A stretch of DNA of 64,000 bases from Patescibacteria group bacterium (GCA_041671225.1 JBAZBY010000001.1:690060-754059); one strand, 5' to 3'. Numbered from the stretch's first letter, positions 5,472-13,013 are shown. Notes: a model not told the origin generated them from the sequence alone. Numbers and translations: made by a program.

Positions 5472-5695
5472 GCCCTCCTGTGTAGGCGCGTCTTGCATAC
5501 GCATGTTAGTTTATTTTTGTTTTTTAAACCCGAGAGTCTTTTTTCTCTTCGAGCTTTTGCCCTGTACCGGAGCCTTACGGCGACTGGTGCTGGGCGGTCG
5601 ACCTTTTAATGAACAAACCTTCAGCCAGAGGCTGATCCGCCTTGGGCGGAGGTTGGGCTTGCCCCGTACTGCTTCAGATGAAAAACGGTACGGCG

Positions 5696-6667
5696 CTAGC
5701 CAATCGTTGGCGCTGGCACGTCGGTGGGCACGTCGGTACTTGGAAGCGAGCGGACGTCTTCTGCCCACTGCTTGATGATTGATTCTACATCTCCCTTCAT
5801 CACTGCCACATCTTTTCCCGCGTACGCTTCAGGGTGTTCAATAGAATGCAGACGGACCTTTGCGGCCGCTTCATCAATGACGTCGATCGCCTTGTCGGGG
5901 AAGTGGCGATCAAGCAAGTATTGTTCTGCAAGAAGAACCGCGGCGTTAATCGCTTCGTCGTCAATGCGCAGATGGTGGTGTTCTTCGTAGCGTGGACGCA
6001 AGCCCCGCAGGATGCTGACCGTCTCTTCTGGCGTTGGTTCGCGGACAAAGATCGGCTGGAAACGACGCTCAAGGGTTTTGTCGTTGCGGATCTTTTCATA
6101 CTCCTCGCGCGTTGTTGCGCCAATAGCCTGGAGCTCGCCGCGGGCGAGTGCAGGTTTGAGAATATCAGATGCGTCAATGGCGCCAGTTGCCTCGCCGGCT
6201 TCTGCCAGCGTGTGAAGTTCATCAATGAACAAAATAATTGATCGCTTTGCCGCAACGATCTCGTTGATGATTCCCGTCAGACGCTTTTCAAATTCACCGC
6301 GATATTTTGTCCCGGCAACGAGCCCGGAGAGATCCAGCGCCAGCACGCGTTTTTCCTTGAGCGGACCGGGAACTTCGCCGCGCGCAATCGCATTGGCAAG
6401 CCCTTCAACAATCGCCGTCTTGCCCACGCCGGAGTCGCCGATGAGCACCGGATTGTTCTTTGTGCGCCGGGAAAGGATTTGAATAACGCGATCGATCTCT
6501 TCTGAGCGGCCGATGACGGGGTCAAGCAAACCCTGCGTTGCAAGAGCGGTAAGATTCTTGGAGTAGATATCCAGTGTTGATGTTTTTGCCGTGGTCGTTT
6601 GACTTCGCTGATACATAAAAACCACCAGCATGATCAGCACGGCAGCAATGAGGAGTGTATAGAGCAT
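5696..6667 (-). CDS. membrane-anchored AAA+ ATPase related to the D1 domain of ClpA/ClpB/ClpC
   Basis: N-terminal TM helix, then '[40 protein letters not shown]' (Walker A), 'ILFIDELH' (Walker B), sensor/arginine-finger region; no Clp_N domain, no D2 domain, 323 aa. Confidence 0.75.
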
Positions 6668-6719
6668 ACAGGGTGAGTGGGTTTTATTTTCTTTTTCTTT
6701 TTTTCCTGACCAGCACTAA

Positions 6720-6974
6720 CTATTGTAGCGGCGCATCCGGAGTGGTAAAGCTGAAGGTAGGAACATCTCCTGTCTGTTCTAATGCGTTCTCTGCGGAGGA
6801 TGTTGTCGCTGCGCCTGAGTTTGCCGCGCTCGAACCAGTGAAGGTCCAGATGGCTGTTGCAACAACTGAAAGCAAAACAAGCACGGCTGTTGCAATGGTA
6901 TATCCTAATGAAATCTTTGTACCGAGGGAAACCTTTGTACTCGTTTCCACTTCAGTTTGTGGATTTTTTGGCAT
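6720..6974 (-). CDS. small membrane protein (84 aa from the ATG; the ORF-track TTG at 7007 is probably too close to the promoter)
   Basis: one TM helix plus Ser/Thr/Ala-rich tail; sits between a strong promoter and the AAA+ gene; no SD sequence. Confidence 0.3.
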   Translation of the reverse strand: MPKNPQTEVETSTKVSLGTKISLGYTIATAVLVLLSVVATAIWTFTGSSAANSGAATTSSAENALEQTGDVPTFSFTTPDAPLQ

Positions 6975-7009
6975 AAGGGTATGCAAAATACTAAGCGCCG
7001 TATGCAAAC

Positions 7010-7038
7010 ATCATACCATAGTTTTGCGACTTTTGCAA
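7010..7038 (-). promoter_or_regulatory. sigma70-like promoter: -35 TTGCAA, 17-nt spacer, extended -10 TGgTATGAT
   Basis: minus-strand read cttgcaaaagtcgcaaaactatggtatgat; would drive the small ORF and the AAA+ gene. Confidence 0.4.
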
Positions 7039-7129
7039 GCAGTGGTCATCCTGAGCCTGCCTGCCCGCCGAAGCGTAGCGTAGGAGGGTCAAAGGATGAT
7101 AGGGCAGTGGACACGACAAAAGACAGATT

Positions 7130-7154
7130 GTCACTCCCGCGTAGGCGGGAGTCC
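7130..7154. repeat. REP-like palindromic element copy A1 (GTCACTCCCGCGTAGGCGGGAGTCC)
   Basis: 7-bp GC stem with GTAG loop; member of a family also found at 9867-9980. Confidence 0.6.
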
Positions 7155-7180
7155 TTGCCTGTTGCCTTAGTGGATTTCGG

Positions 7181-7216
7181 GTCTCCTCCGCCGGAGGCGG
7201 ACTTGCCCGGAATGAC
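7181..7216. repeat. REP-like element copy A2 (degenerate; reverse complement GTCATTCCGGGCAAGTCCGCCTCCGGCGGAGGAGAC)
   Basis: shares the GTCATTCC head and a CCGCC/GGCGG hairpin. Confidence 0.45.
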
Positions 7217-7316
7217 AGCAACAATAAAAAAAGCGCCGGCACCACAAGTGGGTGTCGGCGCGGAAGGTTCGAGCTTTCGCGAAGGGCATTTGCCTTCGCG
7301 TCAGCCACGAAAGTTT

Positions 7317-8741
7317 CTAGCGGACGCGGAACGGAGAGTCCACGATCCGCTGCGGATTCCCAGTCAGGCTGACCGGGATGGTCTTGACGCGGGCATCGGC
7401 GTGGAAGAATCCGCGCCCCCGGTGATTCTTGGGAGAGTCATCGAGGTAGCGAACCTCAACGCCATACTTGGCGAATCGGTCCACCTTGTAGCTCACCGCG
7501 TAACCCGGTGCGACGATGGTTTCGTCGCTCGGGTCCACGTACTGGGAGCCCTTGGCTCCCCAGACGACGAGTCGAGCGATATAGGTCTCGCTCGAGGTGT
7601 TCACCGCCTCAATGAAGAGGGGTTCAACAACACCATCGATCTGGGATGAGCGCGACGCTACCTGACGACGGGCGGGATGAGTCCGCCGCGTTTGAGTCCG
7701 CGGCGTGAAGTTCGAGGAAGGTTCCTCGTACTTCTGTCCCTGGTCGAGTTCGCGCTCAAGGTGAGCGTTCTCGCTGATGGCTTCGAGGCTGTCGGGCTCG
7801 ACAGCAACGAGGAGAGAGTCATCCGCTTCGATCACCACCGGAGGTTCGGTCGCCTTGCTGACACTACCCAGTGTCAGCGTGACCGAGCCTTTGGAAGGCG
7901 CGAGTTGCGCCTCCAAGGAGAGGACCACCCGATTGAGTCGGGCAATCTCGCTCGCGTTCGCGTGTGCCAGCGCGGAGTCGCGCTGGGCAGCGGCCGTGTT
8001 AAGATCCTGCCGGAGCAGGTCTTTCTTGGCGGCCGCCTCACTCGTGTGAGCTGCCGTAACAGGAGCCTTCTCCTTTGTCACGGCGATCTCCGCTTGGAGT
8101 GAGTCAATCTGCGCCTGCAGATTGGCGACGATTGTGGAGTCGGAAGCCGAAGCTTCCAATTCCGTCACGACGACCAGGGAGTCCGCCGGCTCCACGACTG
8201 TGGAGTCGGTAGCGGCCATGTCCGAGGACATGTCCGCATTGAGGATTTCCTCCTCCGCCGGGGCTTCATCGACCAGCGAGTAGTAGTCCTCGCTGCTCTC
8301 CCAGAACCGAAGCCCCGGGAAGAAAAGGAACGACGCCGCCGCCGCCGTGAGGAGCAGAATTGCTCCCAGGGCGACGAGCGGAGCCTTCCTGCTGCGCTTT
8401 CTGGGCGCAGCCGGCTCCTCGTCGTCCGTCTCGGGCTCTTCGTCGGTCTCGGATTCGGGCTCGTAGTCGTCCGTCGGCAGGGCCGGCGGTTCGACAGACT
8501 CAGGTTCGGAGGCGGGCGTCTCGGGTTCGGGGATGGGCTCGGGATCCGGGGCAAACACGTTGCCCTCGGCGTCGATGTACCCGTCCTCGATGAGAGCTGC
8601 GAACGCCTTGTCCGCGCTCTCATCCGAAATTTGGAACTCGTGGGCTTCGAGCGCCCACGTGATGATCGTCTGAACACTGACCTGGGCCTGGGTTCGCACC
8701 CAAGCGATCAGCATCCCAAACGTGAGTTTCTCCTCTGACAT
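7317..8741 (-). CDS. hypothetical bitopic membrane protein: small N-terminal cytoplasmic domain, acidic Pro/Glu linker, one TM helix, coiled-coil-rich extracytoplasmic region, C-terminal globular domain
   Basis: 474-aa ORF with AGGAGAATACG-ATG ribosome-binding site; GC-rich; architecture resembles anti-sigma or tethering proteins but no diagnostic motif. Confidence 0.6.
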   Translation of the reverse strand: MSEEKLTFGMLIAWVRTQAQVSVQTIITWALEAHEFQISDESADKAFAALIEDGYIDAEGNVFAPDPEPIPEPETPASEPESVEPPALPTDDYEPESETDEEPETDDEEPAAPRKRSRKAPLVALGAILLLTAAAASFLFFPGLRFWESSEDYYSLVDEAPAEEEILNADMSSDMAATDSTVVEPADSLVVVTELEASASDSTIVANLQAQIDSLQAEIAVTKEKAPVTAAHTSEAAAKKDLLRQDLNTAAAQRDSALAHANASEIARLNRVVLSLEAQLAPSKGSVTLTLGSVSKATEPPVVIEADDSLLVAVEPDSLEAISENAHLERELDQGQKYEEPSSNFTPRTQTRRTHPARRQVASRSSQIDGVVEPLFIEAVNTSSETYIARLVVWGAKGSQYVDPSDETIVAPGYAVSYKVDRFAKYGVEVRYLDDSPKNHRGRGFFHADARVKTIPVSLTGNPQRIVDSPFRVR

Positions 8742-8839
8742 CGTATTCTCCTATCTTGGGGTTCTTGGCGGCACAGAGAAAAAAGGAGGGGACCACGCGG
8801 CACGAATGCAGCGCAGCCCCCTCAGGAACGAGCCGAGGA

Positions 8840-9307
8840 TCACTCCTCGGTAAGGTCGATGGTGGGGACCTCAACCCAGGTACTATCCGACGAATCGGCT
8901 AGCGAGTTGATTCCCAAGGAACCTGCGTAGGCCGGGTCCAGCTTGTAGACCTTCCCATCATGTCCCAGCTTGTAGCGCGGGTTAGGCGCTCCATCCGGAA
9001 CGTCGACGGTAAACTGCTTCCAGTATCCGGCGCGGTCTTTTCCGACGCGCCAGAGTTTCACAGGGAACTCACCCTGTCCCGGAAGCGGGACGAAGATCAC
9101 ACGGCCGGAGTAGCAGTAGGGCATGTTGTCCCCACTGTACCACCCGTCGGTGTTTCCAACCTTCATTTCCACCGACCACTCATACTCGTTGCCGAAATCG
9201 AAGCCGTAGTCTCCCCAACCCACAGGGCCGAGGATTCTTTCACAGCCGGTCGCCCCCAGGAGGAGCGACAGAAGAGCTACCATCAGAATCAGAGATTTGG
9301 TTTTCAA
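8840..9307 (-). CDS. putative lipoprotein / exported protein (TTG start)
   Basis: signal peptide 'LILMVALLSLLLGATGC', then a Trp/Tyr/Gly-rich domain. Confidence 0.55.
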   Translation of the reverse strand: MKTKSLILMVALLSLLLGATGCERILGPVGWGDYGFDFGNEYEWSVEMKVGNTDGWYSGDNMPYCYSGRVIFVPLPGQGEFPVKLWRVGKDRAGYWKQFTVDVPDGAPNPRYKLGHDGKVYKLDPAYAGSLGINSLADSSDSTWVEVPTIDLTEE

Positions 9308-9556
9308 GGTTCTGTCCTCTTTCTAGATGGGGCGTTTCACGGCCGCTCACCTGTTCGTACTGATCCGTTATGGAGTGGGGAAGAGAAGCCTTCCTCGCAC
9401 TGGACACAATTGTCCATCAAGTGAACATATCATCATACCACTTCCTCAATATTTTGTCAAGTACCACTTGAAAAGCCTTTAAAACAATGTCACCCTGAGC
9501 CCTTCGACCACCTCAGGACATGTTTGTAGAAGGGCGGAATTGGTCTTAGAATTGTC

Positions 9557-9862
9557 ATGGTGGCGGAAAGCCACTATTTTATGCAGTATTTCGTATACAT
9601 CCTCACGAATAAGCGTAATGGAACGCTATATATTGGTGTTACGAACAATCTGGAACGACGCATGGTTGAGCATAAACAGAGGCTAGTTGAAGGTTTCTCC
9701 AAAAAATATGAATTGCACCAGCTTGTCTACTTTGAAAATACAAAGAGTATTGAAGCTGCGATATGGAGAGAGAAGTGTCTGAAGAAGTGGTACCGGAAGT
9801 GGAAAATACGGCTTATTGAGGAACAGAATCCTGAGTGGATGGATTTGGCTGAGGATTTTTGA
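9557..9862 (+). CDS. GIY-YIG nuclease superfamily protein (UPF0213/YhbQ-like)
   Basis: 'YFVYILTNKRNGTLYIGVTNNLERRMVEH' GIY-YIG motif; alternative start at 9581. Confidence 0.75.
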   Translation: MVAESHYFMQYFVYILTNKRNGTLYIGVTNNLERRMVEHKQRLVEGFSKKYELHQLVYFENTKSIEAAIWREKCLKKWYRKWKIRLIEEQNPEWMDLAEDF

Positions 9863-9866
9863 ATGT

Positions 9867-9891
9867 GGATGCCCGCCTACGCGGGCATGAC
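9867..9891. repeat. REP-like element copy B1 (reverse complement GTCATGCCCGCGTAGGCGGGCATCC)
   Basis: same GTAG loop and stem as copy A1; begins 5 nt after the GIY-YIG stop. Confidence 0.6.
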
Positions 9892-9898
9892 AAAAGGG

Positions 9899-9914
9899 TA
9901 CGCGGGCATGACAA
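9899..9914. repeat. half-copy of a REP-like element (tacgcgggcatgacaa), tandem duplicate of the B1 3' arm
   Basis: direct repeat of cgcgggcatgacaa at 9881-9894 and 9901-9914. Confidence 0.5.
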
Positions 9915-9938
9915 CGCATAATTACTTCTTCTCCTAAC

Positions 9939-9949
9939 GTCATTCCCGC
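9939..9949. repeat. REP-like half-site GTCATTCCCGC
   Basis: 5' arm only. Confidence 0.4.
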
Positions 9950-9956
9950 TGCCCTG

Positions 9957-9980
9957 TCATTCCCGCGAATGCGGGAATCC
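9957..9980. repeat. REP-like element copy B3 (GTCATTCCCGCGAATGCGGGAATCC)
   Basis: perfect 7-bp stem TTCCCGC/GCGGGAA with GAAT loop. Confidence 0.6.
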
Positions 9981-10035
9981 ACTGTGGTTACTGGAACGGA
10001 TTCCAGATCTCCCTCGCTTTGCTCAATCGTCCAGA

Positions 10036-10587
10036 ATGACAGGGAAACAAAAGACGCCTATACTAATGCACATGCTTTTATACATCCTCATTATCTTCAT
10101 ATTTCTTGTCCTCGGTTCTGCGGCCGTTGCAGGATTTAAGGCTGCCCCGTATGTGCCAACACGCACAAAGGAGAAGGAGCGTATGCTGCGCCTTGCCAAT
10201 ATTCAGCCTGGCGAGACGGTCATTGATCTTGGTTCTGGTACGGGTCAGTTGGTGATGAGCGCTGCCAAGGATTATAAAGCTCGCGGCATTGGCTATGAGA
10301 TATCGATTCTTCCTTTTATCATTTCCGTCATTTGGAAGCTGTTGCGACCAGGCGTTTCAGCATCGTTTCACTTTAAGGACTTTTTTTCTGTGGATCTTTC
10401 ACATGCGGATGTGATTGTGTTTTTTTTAACACCCGGAGCAATGAAGCGCCTTGGTCCAAAACTCGCAAAGGAGCTCAAGCCAGGCGCACGCGTCGTTTCG
10501 CTCGCGTTTGCCATACCGGATCTTCCACTCACGCAAAAGGACAAGCCGCAGAGCAATGCAACACCGGTATTTGTGTACACAAAATGA
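10036..10587 (+). CDS. membrane-anchored class I SAM-dependent methyltransferase
   Basis: N-terminal TM helix; motif I 'VIDLGSGTGQLV'; 183 aa. Confidence 0.6.
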   Translation: MTGKQKTPILMHMLLYILIIFIFLVLGSAAVAGFKAAPYVPTRTKEKERMLRLANIQPGETVIDLGSGTGQLVMSAAKDYKARGIGYEISILPFIISVIWKLLRPGVSASFHFKDFFSVDLSHADVIVFFLTPGAMKRLGPKLAKELKPGARVVSLAFAIPDLPLTQKDKPQSNATPVFVYTK

Positions 10588-11393: not shown

Positions 11394-13013
11394 ATGTCGA
11401 CAACACTGTATCGAAAGTACCGCCCACGCATCCTCGACGAGCTTGTAGGGCAGGACCATGTCAAAATTACCTTGAAGCAAGAAATTGCCTCAGGGAGACT
11501 TGCGCATGCATATCTCTTTACTGGTCCGCGCGGTGTTGGGAAGACAACCACAGCTCGTTTGATTGCGAGCGCGGTGAATGTCCCGGAAGGTTCAAAGAAG
11601 AAGGAGGATCAGGCGCGCGCAGAGAGCATCCTTTCCGGCAACTCGCTTGATGTTGTGGAAATTGACGCAGCGTCCAATCGCGGTATTGATGATATTCGCG
11701 CGTTGCGAGAAGGCGTGCTTATTGCGCCATCACATTTGCGGTTTAAGGTGTACATCATCGATGAAGTGCATATGCTGACGACGGAGGCTTTTAATGCCTT
11801 ATTAAAGACACTCGAAGAGCCGCCAGAGCATGCCATTTTTGTTCTTGCCACAACCGAAGTGCAAAAGCTTCCGCAGACCATCGTCTCTCGCTGTGAACGG
11901 TTTGATTTTCATCGGGTTTCCATTGAGCATCTTTTTGAACGCCTCACGGATCTTGCCGGCCGCGAGAAAGTGACGGTCGAAGCAGAAGTCATGCGCGCCA
12001 TTGCCATTGCCGCAGAGGGATCCATGCGAGATGCAGAGAGCGTTCTTGGTCAGATACTTGCGCTGGGAGAAAAGAATATCACGCGCGATATCGCCGCACT
12101 TGTGTTGCCCCATTCTGATCTTGCCCGCCTGTTGCAGCTCTTTGGCCATCTTGTGCACAATGAAACCGCGAGTGCAGTGCAGCTTCTGCGTGAGACCATT
12201 GAACAGGGAACGAACGTCTCATACTTCACAAAATCACTCGTGCAGTTCTTGCGCGGCGTGTTGTTGCGAAAGGTAGATGCGAGCCTGCAGCATGATGCGC
12301 TGCTTGGGCTCACCAAAACGCAACAAGAAGAGCTTGATCATATACTTGATGTCGTGACACCGCAGTACCTTGTGCATATTTTGGACGCGTTTCTTGCGGC
12401 AGCAAAGGATATTGACGCAACCTATGTGCCAGAACTGCCGCTGGAAATGGCGATCGTCGAGCTCACCACTGCAACCGAAGGAACACAATCCATGGAATTG
12501 CCGGCAGCAAGGGATGCAAAGGCGCCTGCTGCGGTGAGCGCGCCGGCACAAAGCACGAATCCCAAAAAGCAATCCACACAAAAAGCGAAGGATGCAGACG
12601 TATCAAAGAAGAAGGCTCGCGGGGCAGTATCTGCCGCTATCCTTCAACAATGGAATGCGCTTGTCGATCGTATACAAAAAGAGAATACCGGTCTCGCACT
12701 TATTCTGAATGTGGTGCACCCTATTGGCGTGGAAGGCGATACGCTTACTTTGGCTTGCCGCTATCGGTTTCATGCAGAACGTCTTGCTGAGCCATCGGTG
12801 CAAACGTACCTGCAAAATATCATCGAAGAAGTGACGGGTGAGAGATATACGATCGTCACTGATATCCAAGACGACATGCCGGCAGGAGAAAAAACTGCAG
12901 CACCCTCAAAAGCCGCGCCCGCAGCAGCACCAGAAAAGAAGCCAGAATCAACAGGGGATCTTTGGAAGGATGTTGTGGGAACCTTTGGTGACGATATCGT
13001 CCAGGAAGATTAA
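11394..13013 (+). CDS. dnaX: DNA polymerase III subunit gamma/tau
   Basis: 'YRKYRPR...VGQDHV', Walker A 'GPRGVGKTT', 'IIDEVHML', 'SRCERFDF' clamp-loader motifs; Ala/Pro/Lys-rich C-terminal linker. Confidence 0.9.
   Translation: MSTTLYRKYRPRILDELVGQDHVKITLKQEIASGRLAHAYLFTGPRGVGKTTTARLIASAVNVPEGSKKKEDQARAESILSGNSLDVVEIDAASNRGIDDIRALREGVLIAPSHLRFKVYIIDEVHMLTTEAFNALLKTLEEPPEHAIFVLATTEVQKLPQTIVSRCERFDFHRVSIEHLFERLTDLAGREKVTVEAEVMRAIAIAAEGSMRDAESVLGQILALGEKNITRDIAALVLPHSDLARLLQLFGHLVHNETASAVQLLRETIEQGTNVSYFTKSLVQFLRGVLLRKVDASLQHDALLGLTKTQQEELDHILDVVTPQYLVHILDAFLAAAKDIDATYVPELPLEMAIVELTTATEGTQSMELPAARDAKAPAAVSAPAQSTNPKKQSTQKAKDADVSKKKARGAVSAAILQQWNALVDRIQKENTGLALILNVVHPIGVEGDTLTLACRYRFHAERLAEPSVQTYLQNIIEEVTGERYTIVTDIQDDMPAGEKTAAPSKAAPAAAPEKKPESTGDLWKDVVGTFGDDIVQED

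Follow-up and report, generated by a model that had tools for sequence, protein, structure and literature searches.

A stretch of 64,000 nucleotides from a Patescibacteria group bacterium (GCA_041671225.1, JBAZBY010000001.1:690060-754059; this whole stretch is referred to below as the window) carries a small family of 25-nt palindromic repeats clustered in two intergenic regions. An earlier reading made from the sequence alone (the sequence-only reading) took them for a lineage-specific and undescribed family of repetitive extragenic palindromic (REP) elements. Our analysis indicates that the repeats are very probably Ssn-related motifs (SRM), the predicted recognition sites of a 93-aa GIY-YIG nuclease encoded at 9581-9862, which would itself be a member of the Ssn family of endonucleases, specific for sites in single-stranded DNA. 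A system of this kind has already been described (2025), and the published picture is unchanged; the window adds a further member and a new host.

The reference point is the work of Chenal et al. (Nat Commun 2025; PMC11893778) on the 28-nt Neisseria Transformation Sequence (NTS), CGTCATTCCCGCGMAVGCGGGAATCYRG, which contains the older dRS3 repeat. The SRM are the wider motif class, with a degenerate consensus that includes NTS and dRS3 (PMC11893778). SsnA of N. meningitidis (NMV_0044) is a 94-aa single-domain GIY-YIG protein (CDD cd10448), and ssnA homologues across bacteria are flanked by NTS-like motifs (PMC11893778). Four Ssn homologues were found to bind the hairpin only in single-stranded DNA (ssDNA) and to cut a few nt 5' of the hairpin/GTCAT, with no cutting of the complementary strand, duplex DNA or RNA; mutation of Y6, Y17 or E64 abolishes cutting by SsnA (PMC11893778). 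Cutting depends most on the three bases that precede the palindrome and binding most on the C that follows it, while the hairpin loop is dispensable. In Neisseria, the system lowers transformation by NTS-flanked or NTS-bearing DNA, and mobility of Ssn/SRM has been raised only as a hypothesis (PMC11893778).

Canonical hairpins and the adjoining nuclease gene

Three canonical copies are present in the window, with the 25-nt cores GTCAC-TCCCGC-GTAG-GCGGGA-GTCC (copy 1, 7130-7154, plus strand), GTCAT-GCCCGC-GTAG-GCGGGC-ATCC (copy 2, 9867-9891, minus strand) and GTCAT-TCCCGC-GAAT-GCGGGA-ATCC (copy 3, 9956-9980, plus strand). All three full copies listed in the sequence-only reading therefore exist, although the third starts at 9956 rather than 9957, and the stem TCCCGC, which had been described as common to all, is found in copies 1 and 3 but is GCCCGC at 9867-9891. 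Each canonical copy is built of GTC, an 8-bp stem that begins directly after GTC, a 4-nt loop and a C, and folds as ssDNA with z-scores of -4.4 to -4.9. The 24-nt pattern GTCAYNCCCGCNNNNGCGGGNRTC has three matches in the 64 kb, namely copies 1-3, against 0.02 expected from shuffled sequences. The remaining matches to the head (at 11988, 24563, 26542, 27795, 46383, 51956 and 58997) fall within long open reading frames (ORFs) or lack the motif, and the hairpin is absent from partial head matches in the long ORFs of the window. This excess over expectation, together with the folding and the lack of a hairpin at the other head matches, shows that the 25-nt palindromes are real and non-random. Within the 64-kb window, no copies occur outside 7045-7216 and 9489-10042, and all copies are intergenic, so that they lie outside coding sequence as the earlier reading had it. 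An Rfam search gave no match in 6500-10500.

The three canonical copies all match the SRM consensus HGTCWYN(0-2)YYVSBRHN(0-5)WNVSBRGN(0-2)RNCYNB exactly, GTC head and 3' C included, and there is no other match in the window; in shuffled sequences, the same consensus is matched 0.27 times on average and twice at most. Copy 3 contains a perfect Neisseria dRS3 (ATTCCC-N8-GGGAAT) at 9959-9978, which the other two copies do not, and agrees with the 28-nt Neisseria NTS at 25 of 28 positions, the best value in the window. No copy in the window qualifies as a strict NTS (at most 1 mismatch of 28), and with its 3 mismatches copy 3 is thus assigned to the SRM, not to the strict NTS. Two of the three stems here (ATGCCCGC and ACTCCCGC) differ from that of NTS. 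The family supposed to be undescribed therefore corresponds to the NTS/SRM motif of PMC11893778.

The gene beside copy 2, hereafter ssn, lies in an ORF open from 9557, and its NCBI start is the Met at 9581 (P0121, 93 aa, 100% identical). Numbered from this start, the protein has Y6, Y17 and E64, the residue numbers of the SsnA catalytic residues, and among 120 homologues Y6, Y17, R27 and E64 are at least 99% conserved, with R27 invariant. Motifs are located 3-5 nt downstream and about 45 nt upstream of ssn. The downstream motif is copy 2, whose head is directed away from the gene; the sequence-only reading had remarked that this copy directly follows the stop of a GIY-YIG gene, which holds with a gap of 3-5 nt, but had drawn no link between gene and motif. 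Both the protein (small, single-domain, GIY-YIG, about 94 aa, with Y6, Y17 and E64) and the sites (GTC head, 8-bp stem, free loop, C tail, in an intergenic SRM-gene-SRM architecture) resemble the Ssn/NTS system of Neisseria.

Translation through the ssn stop gives WMPAYAGMT...VIPANAGIH. Motif-derived C-terminal tails such as WIPAFAGMT are also seen in 4 of the 120 database homologues (P0132, P0162, P0211 and P0224), because these gene calls continue past the correct end of the gene into the motif behind it, an artefact of annotation by which the motif can be recognised. Searches with the nuclease yielded no match among solved structures, only a sub-threshold match in NCBIfam (group I intron endonuclease), only weak GIY-YIG-level matches in the PADLOC defence-system search, and no close relative on viral contigs.

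Association of motif and gene across phyla

Relatives of the ssn protein were sought in one genome per species, which gave 556, and the loci of the best 80 of these 556, with proteins 55-68% identical to the ssn protein, were studied. These 80 loci span Bacteroidota, Patescibacteria, Ignavibacteria, Alpha-, Gamma- and Deltaproteobacteria, Chloroflexi, Nitrospirae, Verrucomicrobia and others. The same motif, even the sequence GTCATTCCCGCGAAGGCGGGAATCCAG, adjoins homologous genes in Bacteroidota, Patescibacteria, Ignavibacteria, Proteobacteria, Chloroflexi, Nitrospirae and others, which speaks against the lineage-specific family that had been proposed. In the 150 nt 3' of the stop codons, CTGGAT.CC-hairpin-GG.ATGAC(A) recurs in locus after locus, and this is the reverse complement of the window motif.

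A detector based on structure, requiring GTC followed by a stem with arms of 6 nt or more around a 3-14-nt loop and then by C, found a minus-strand GTC-hairpin-C within 50 nt past the stop at 34 of the 80 loci and a plus-strand copy within 200 nt upstream at 51. Both are present at 33 loci (the published figure for both is 42%; PMC11893778), and the background of the motif more than 1 kb from the gene is 0.17 per kb. Since the downstream copies are on the minus strand and the upstream copies on the plus strand, the heads are directed away from the gene on both sides. Adjacent motif pairs are mainly inverted (68, against 20 in tandem); tight (+,-) doublets with 15-31-nt gaps are the commonest arrangement (n=39), followed by (-,+) pairs (n=29) and tandem pairs (n=20).

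For the hairpin itself, all 26-mers bounded by GTCA and TCCA were collected with no selection for a hairpin, giving 85 unique sequences. All seven free pairs form in 57 of them, and in a slid register in none. Pairing reaches 86.6% of cells, compared with at most 47.5% in slid registers, and covariation is 0.479 versus 0.160 after shuffling, a value attained by 0 of 500 shuffles. Stem positions 3, 6 and 8 alternate among C-G, T-A, G-C and A-T, and the unpaired GTC head and CCA tail are conserved across phyla. On this comparative evidence, we conclude that the hairpin is under selection.

One alternative is that the hairpins are transcription terminators or mRNA 3'-end stabilisers of the upstream genes, and that their repetition is incidental. 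REP elements do stabilise upstream mRNA, and copy 2, which starts almost at the ssn stop, would form its hairpin in mRNA too. However, no T-run follows any copy, a terminator scan flags none of them, and a separate, real terminator with a T-run stands at about 7228-7262. Copies also occur upstream of genes and in both orientations, and a terminator has no need of the conserved unpaired head and tail. We therefore consider this explanation very unlikely; furthermore, SsnA does not bind RNA (PMC11893778). A secondary role as stabiliser is compatible with the Ssn/SRM reading.

A classical family of REP elements or bacterial interspersed mosaic elements (BIMEs), mobilised or maintained by a RAYT (an IS200/IS605-like Y1 transposase) encoded elsewhere in the genome, is highly improbable as well. 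The likeness on which the sequence-only reading was built does stand as regards form, for the repeats are imperfect palindromes of short length with a conserved and oriented head at the 5' end, and they occur clustered between genes, often as inverted doublets, the prevailing arrangement in the 80 loci. Like REP/REPIN with RAYT and BIMEs, the present system also combines a nuclease gene in single copy with hairpin sites of its own on either side, the hairpins being predicted to be recognised in ssDNA. On the other hand, the head is GTCAY and not the GTAG-type REP head, and the flanked gene, here and in the 80 loci across phyla, encodes a GIY-YIG protein and not a Y1 transposase; in the 17.6 kb surrounding the site, the Pfam calls include no Y1_Tnp. 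The probable partner is the adjoining gene and not a RAYT. A RAYT is an HUH tyrosine transesterase, whereas this nuclease would be a hydrolytic GIY-YIG enzyme, with gene-flanking motifs on opposite strands. Within the 64 kb, about 6% of a genome of roughly 1.03 Mb, the copies are also not dispersed: they lie in two small blocks within 3 kb that related genomes lack, and the other 61 kb are without copies. Published biochemistry, in addition, links the motif to the GIY-YIG Ssn (PMC11893778).

As for functionless local duplications, chance palindromes copied by slippage, the exact 16-nt and 11-nt local duplicates and the lack of copies elsewhere in the 64 kb would agree with them, but they have next to no chance of being the explanation, since the same motif position and strand recur at homologous genes in dozens of unrelated genomes and the stems show compensatory changes.

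The two SRM blocks and their sites in related genomes

The repeats of the window are arranged in two blocks (Table 1), one with the ssn gene and one without a gene. The ssn block reads, in order, decayed SRM(+), ssn, SRM(-), half-copy; half-copy, SRM(+), 15 nt, degenerate SRM(-).

Table 1. Positions of the repeats, the blocks and the nuclease gene in the 64-kb window.
Feature	Position	Strand	Description
Canonical SRM copy 1	7129-7156	+	TGTCAC-TCCCGC-GTAG-GCGGGA-GTCCTT; SRM consensus match, 8-bp stem, z -4.4
Canonical SRM copy 2	9865-9892	-	TGTCAT-GCCCGC-GTAG-GCGGGC-ATCCAC; SRM consensus match, z -4.9
Canonical SRM copy 3	9955-9982	+	TGTCAT-TCCCGC-GAAT-GCGGGA-ATCCAC; SRM consensus match, z -4.7
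ssn	9581-9862	+	Single-domain GIY-YIG nuclease, 93 aa; PF01541, 1e-14; no other domain
5' half-copy (head, 5' arm and loop)	9899-9914	-	Exact 16-nt duplicate of 9878-9893, period 21 nt
5' half-copy GTCATTCCCGC	9939-9949	+	Head and 5' arm repeated; copy 3 begins 17 nt later
Long-loop SRM-like variant	7045-7100	+	GTC-ATCCT...AGGAT-GA (class GTCAYCCTGAG); left end of 172-bp block
Degenerate long-loop SRM	7172-7216	-	GTC-ATTCCGGG-24 nt-CCCGAAAT-CC; right end of 172-bp block; doublet with copy 1
Decayed long-loop SRM variant	9489-9535	+	GTCACCCTGAGCCCTTCGA...AGAAGGGCG; left end of ssn block; z -1.0
Degenerate long-loop SRM	9998-10042	-	GTCATTCTGGA-22 nt-TCTGGAATCC; right end of ssn block
ssn block (SRM-ssn-SRM), about 555 bp	9489-10042	.	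G+C 0.41-0.46, against about 0.50 around; without counterpart in four syntenic relatives
Gene-less SRM block, 172 bp	7045-7216	.	Bounded by outward heads (GTCATCC... / ...GGAATGAC); aligned with L082, L083 and L084

The outer ends of both blocks are formed by long-loop variants. The one at 7045-7100 folds from directly after GTC (-13.6 kcal/mol, z -4.1), while that at 9489-9535 folds weakly and is for this reason called decayed. Among the partial copies of the sequence-only reading, 9899-9914 and 9939-9949 proved real, and the copy placed at 7181-7216 is better read as the minus-strand long-loop motif 7172-7216, with an outer stem of 8 bp and one mismatch (by eye) and a fold that is not significant alone (z -1.5). 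The degenerate minus-strand copy at 9998-10042 had been overlooked; it has no fold alone, and its head pairs with the head of copy 3. The shorter related motif GTCAYCCTGAGC is indeed present at 7045 and at 9489 (9488 had been given), although two occurrences against 0.45 expected are not significant alone. It belongs to a second motif class, GTCATYCTGAGCGnAGCGAAGRATCC plus longer-looped forms, which flanks ssn homologues on both sides at two of the studied loci (L053 and L059) and lies around them at two others (L034 and L057).

Tandem 5' half-copies, each comprising the GTCAT head with a few adjoining bases and the 5' arm as far as the loop, recur across phyla. Examples are 9878-9914 and 9939-9966 in the window and twelve of the loci (L007, L012, L013, L019, L020, L035, L046, L052, L055, L064, L070 and L081), and the period is about 17-35 nt, mostly 19-24. 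Within 80 nt of a full copy, such half-copies number 28 on the side of cleavage (5') and 7 on the other (3'). The text of PMC11893778 makes no mention of tandem copies. The half-copy period is roughly equal to the distance from the reported Ssn cut site to the hairpin apex.

The history of the two blocks was approached by comparison with five related Patescibacteria contigs, in which the protein of a neighbouring AAA ATPase gene is 74-92% identical to that of the window; four of them (L083, L084, L085 and L086; 74-85%) are syntenic and keep the order DnaX, 218-aa gene, methyltransferase, two length-variable genes, small gene, AAA, CysS. In these four, no gene lies between the methyltransferase and the next gene, the gap being 106-191 nt, and the motif is absent from this gap in the two relatives whose sequence was read. 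In alignment, the extra DNA of the window runs from GTCACCCTGAGC (9489) to CCAGAATGACAG (10042) and ends exactly at the outward GTCAC / ATGAC. A short repeat, AAACAA, is seen on both flanks of the ssn block and may be a chance occurrence.

The surplus of the window at the second site amounts to 172 bases, from GTCATCCTGAG (7045) to CCGGAATGAC (7216), with the terminator of the 474-aa gene on one side and the small gene's promoter on the other. This gene-less block is without counterpart in two aligned relatives of those lacking the ssn block. The closest relative, L082 (92%), has a bare GTCATTCC at this site (L082 290-297), just upstream of a conserved TTGCAA promoter, and this could be either a remnant or a seed. 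In the opposite direction, L083 carries at 5669-5735 a doublet TGTCATTCCGGCGAAAGCCGGAATC ... GGATTCCGGGTCAAGCCCGGAATGA, composed of a canonical plus copy, a 14-nt gap and a minus copy whose head is TTCAT. The doublet lies between cysS and a small ORF, where the window and L084 have no motif; therefore, motif sites turn over between close relatives.

Because both blocks are absent in relatives and end in outward-facing GTCAY heads, they look like insertions relative to the related genomes. The empty sites (in four relatives for the ssn block, in two for the gene-less block), the outward ends, the L083 doublet and the excess of half-copies on the cleavage side together lead us to a tentative and rather doubtful proposal, namely that SRM-ssn-SRM cassettes, and SRM doublets without a gene, are genuinely mobile elements, a counterpart of RAYT/REPINs driven by a GIY-YIG enzyme. 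On this view, the tandem half-copies would have been left behind where Ssn cut 5' of the hairpin and the break was then misrepaired or the template switched. The idea that the G+C-rich two-gene block at 7317-9307 (G+C 0.60-0.66) is cargo between the SRM clusters was rejected, as its homologues occupy the same place in relatives without SRMs.

Proposed action, neighbouring genes and significance

If the window protein acts like its characterized relatives, the sequence of events would be as follows. When DNA turns single-stranded, for example in replication, DNA uptake or repair, the SRM strand would fold into its 8-bp hairpin; Ssn would then bind the hairpin and the following C, read the GTC before the hairpin, and cut that strand a few nt 5' of GTCAT, with no action on double-stranded DNA, RNA or the complementary strand. 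These steps were shown for four homologues (PMC11893778) and are extended by analogy to the window protein, which would use the local copies as its sites. As the heads of the outermost motifs face outward at both block ends, cuts would be expected just outside each block, on opposite strands.

The module may have entered the lineage as one unit. To our knowledge, no strand-joining activity has been found in GIY-YIG nucleases, so that any spread would have to rely on repair or recombination by the host, and not on transposition in the manner of IS200/IS605. The system is like IS200/IS605 in that subterminal hairpins would be recognised as ssDNA and the strand cut at a short sequence on their 5' side; unlike IS200/IS605, where both end hairpins are on the same strand and TnpA/TnpB are encoded, the end motifs here are inverted and there is no TnpA/TnpB. 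By analogy to RAYT with REP/REPIN, the module is most likely a selfish or semi-domesticated pair of nuclease and target.

Several points weigh against the Ssn/SRM reading. At the protein level, membership in the Ssn family is argued from size, residues and motif association, and Ssn homologues are known to differ in specificity (PMC11893778). The 64 kb hold three canonical copies, all near the gene, unlike the hundreds of copies of pathogenic Neisseria, and a Neisseria-like genome-wide role is not evident. The case for insertion uses diverged intergenic alignments of species-level relatives, with approximate boundaries that are good to about ±10 nt; gain is the more parsimonious explanation, and loss in the relatives is a formally possible alternative. 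The end motifs at 9489-9535 and 9998-10042 are decayed and fold poorly alone, and the closest homologue of the ssn protein is only about 73% identical, which gives no sign of recent spread. From the decay of the ends and the lack of any homologue above about 73% identity, this copy appears old, and the block is probably no longer mobile.

With regard to the host, the present system differs from that of Neisseria in that it resides in a member of the Patescibacteria (candidate phyla radiation, CPR) with a genome of about 1 Mb and a contig of 1,028,488 bp, near Candidatus Kerfeldbacteria, a placement taken from the source names of neighbouring AAA ATPase homologues. Unlike the dRS3 and NIMEs of Neisseria, the repeats here show no sign of RS elements or of a phage-integration context.

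The genes around the blocks offer some further observations. On the methyltransferase side of the ssn block, the outward head ATGACA at 10036 stands 17 nt before TATACT, upstream of the methyltransferase gene (10036-10064). Insertion sequence (IS) ends sometimes supply -35 elements; as ATGACA is a -35-like hexamer 17 nt from TATACT, the inserted block may likewise supply the -35 element of the methyltransferase gene. The -10-like CTATACT is conserved in relatives without the ssn block. The listed methyltransferase ORF (10036-10587) begins within the degenerate motif. Judging from the aligned N-termini of relatives, the real start would be the ATG at 10073 (MLLYILIIF...), and another gene call starts later still (134 aa).

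The two genes between the blocks, at 7317-8741 and 8840-9307 (both on the minus strand), have no Pfam match, and their G+C of 0.60-0.66 exceeds the value of about 0.50 in the vicinity. Synteny is kept in relatives, although the lengths differ greatly (474/489/306/199 aa and 155/147/127/123 aa), and the longer one (7317-8741) seems on inspection to include a hydrophobic segment and an acidic stretch of low complexity. They may be fast-evolving surface proteins; in Neisseria, NTS clusters likewise adjoin membrane-protein genes. The gene at 5696-6667 (minus strand) encodes a stand-alone 323-aa ClpB/ClpC-like AAA module with only the first nucleotide-binding domain and lid, which is conserved in many Patescibacteria.

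For annotation, these results replace an "unknown REP family" by a defined pair of nuclease and target, and read-through into the motif accounts for peptide tails such as PAFAGMT and PAYAGMT on GIY-YIG gene calls. The study of Ssn gains a host among the reduced-genome Patescibacteria, as well as comparative evidence, in the form of empty sites and outward ends, that the SRM-ssn-SRM module and SRM doublets may arrive as discrete insertions. In three respects, namely the evidence for insertion, the rule of outward heads and the arrays of half-copies, the results reach a little further than the published text, as observations and not as demonstrations. The recurring half-copy signature, in turn, may record the action of Ssn in vivo.

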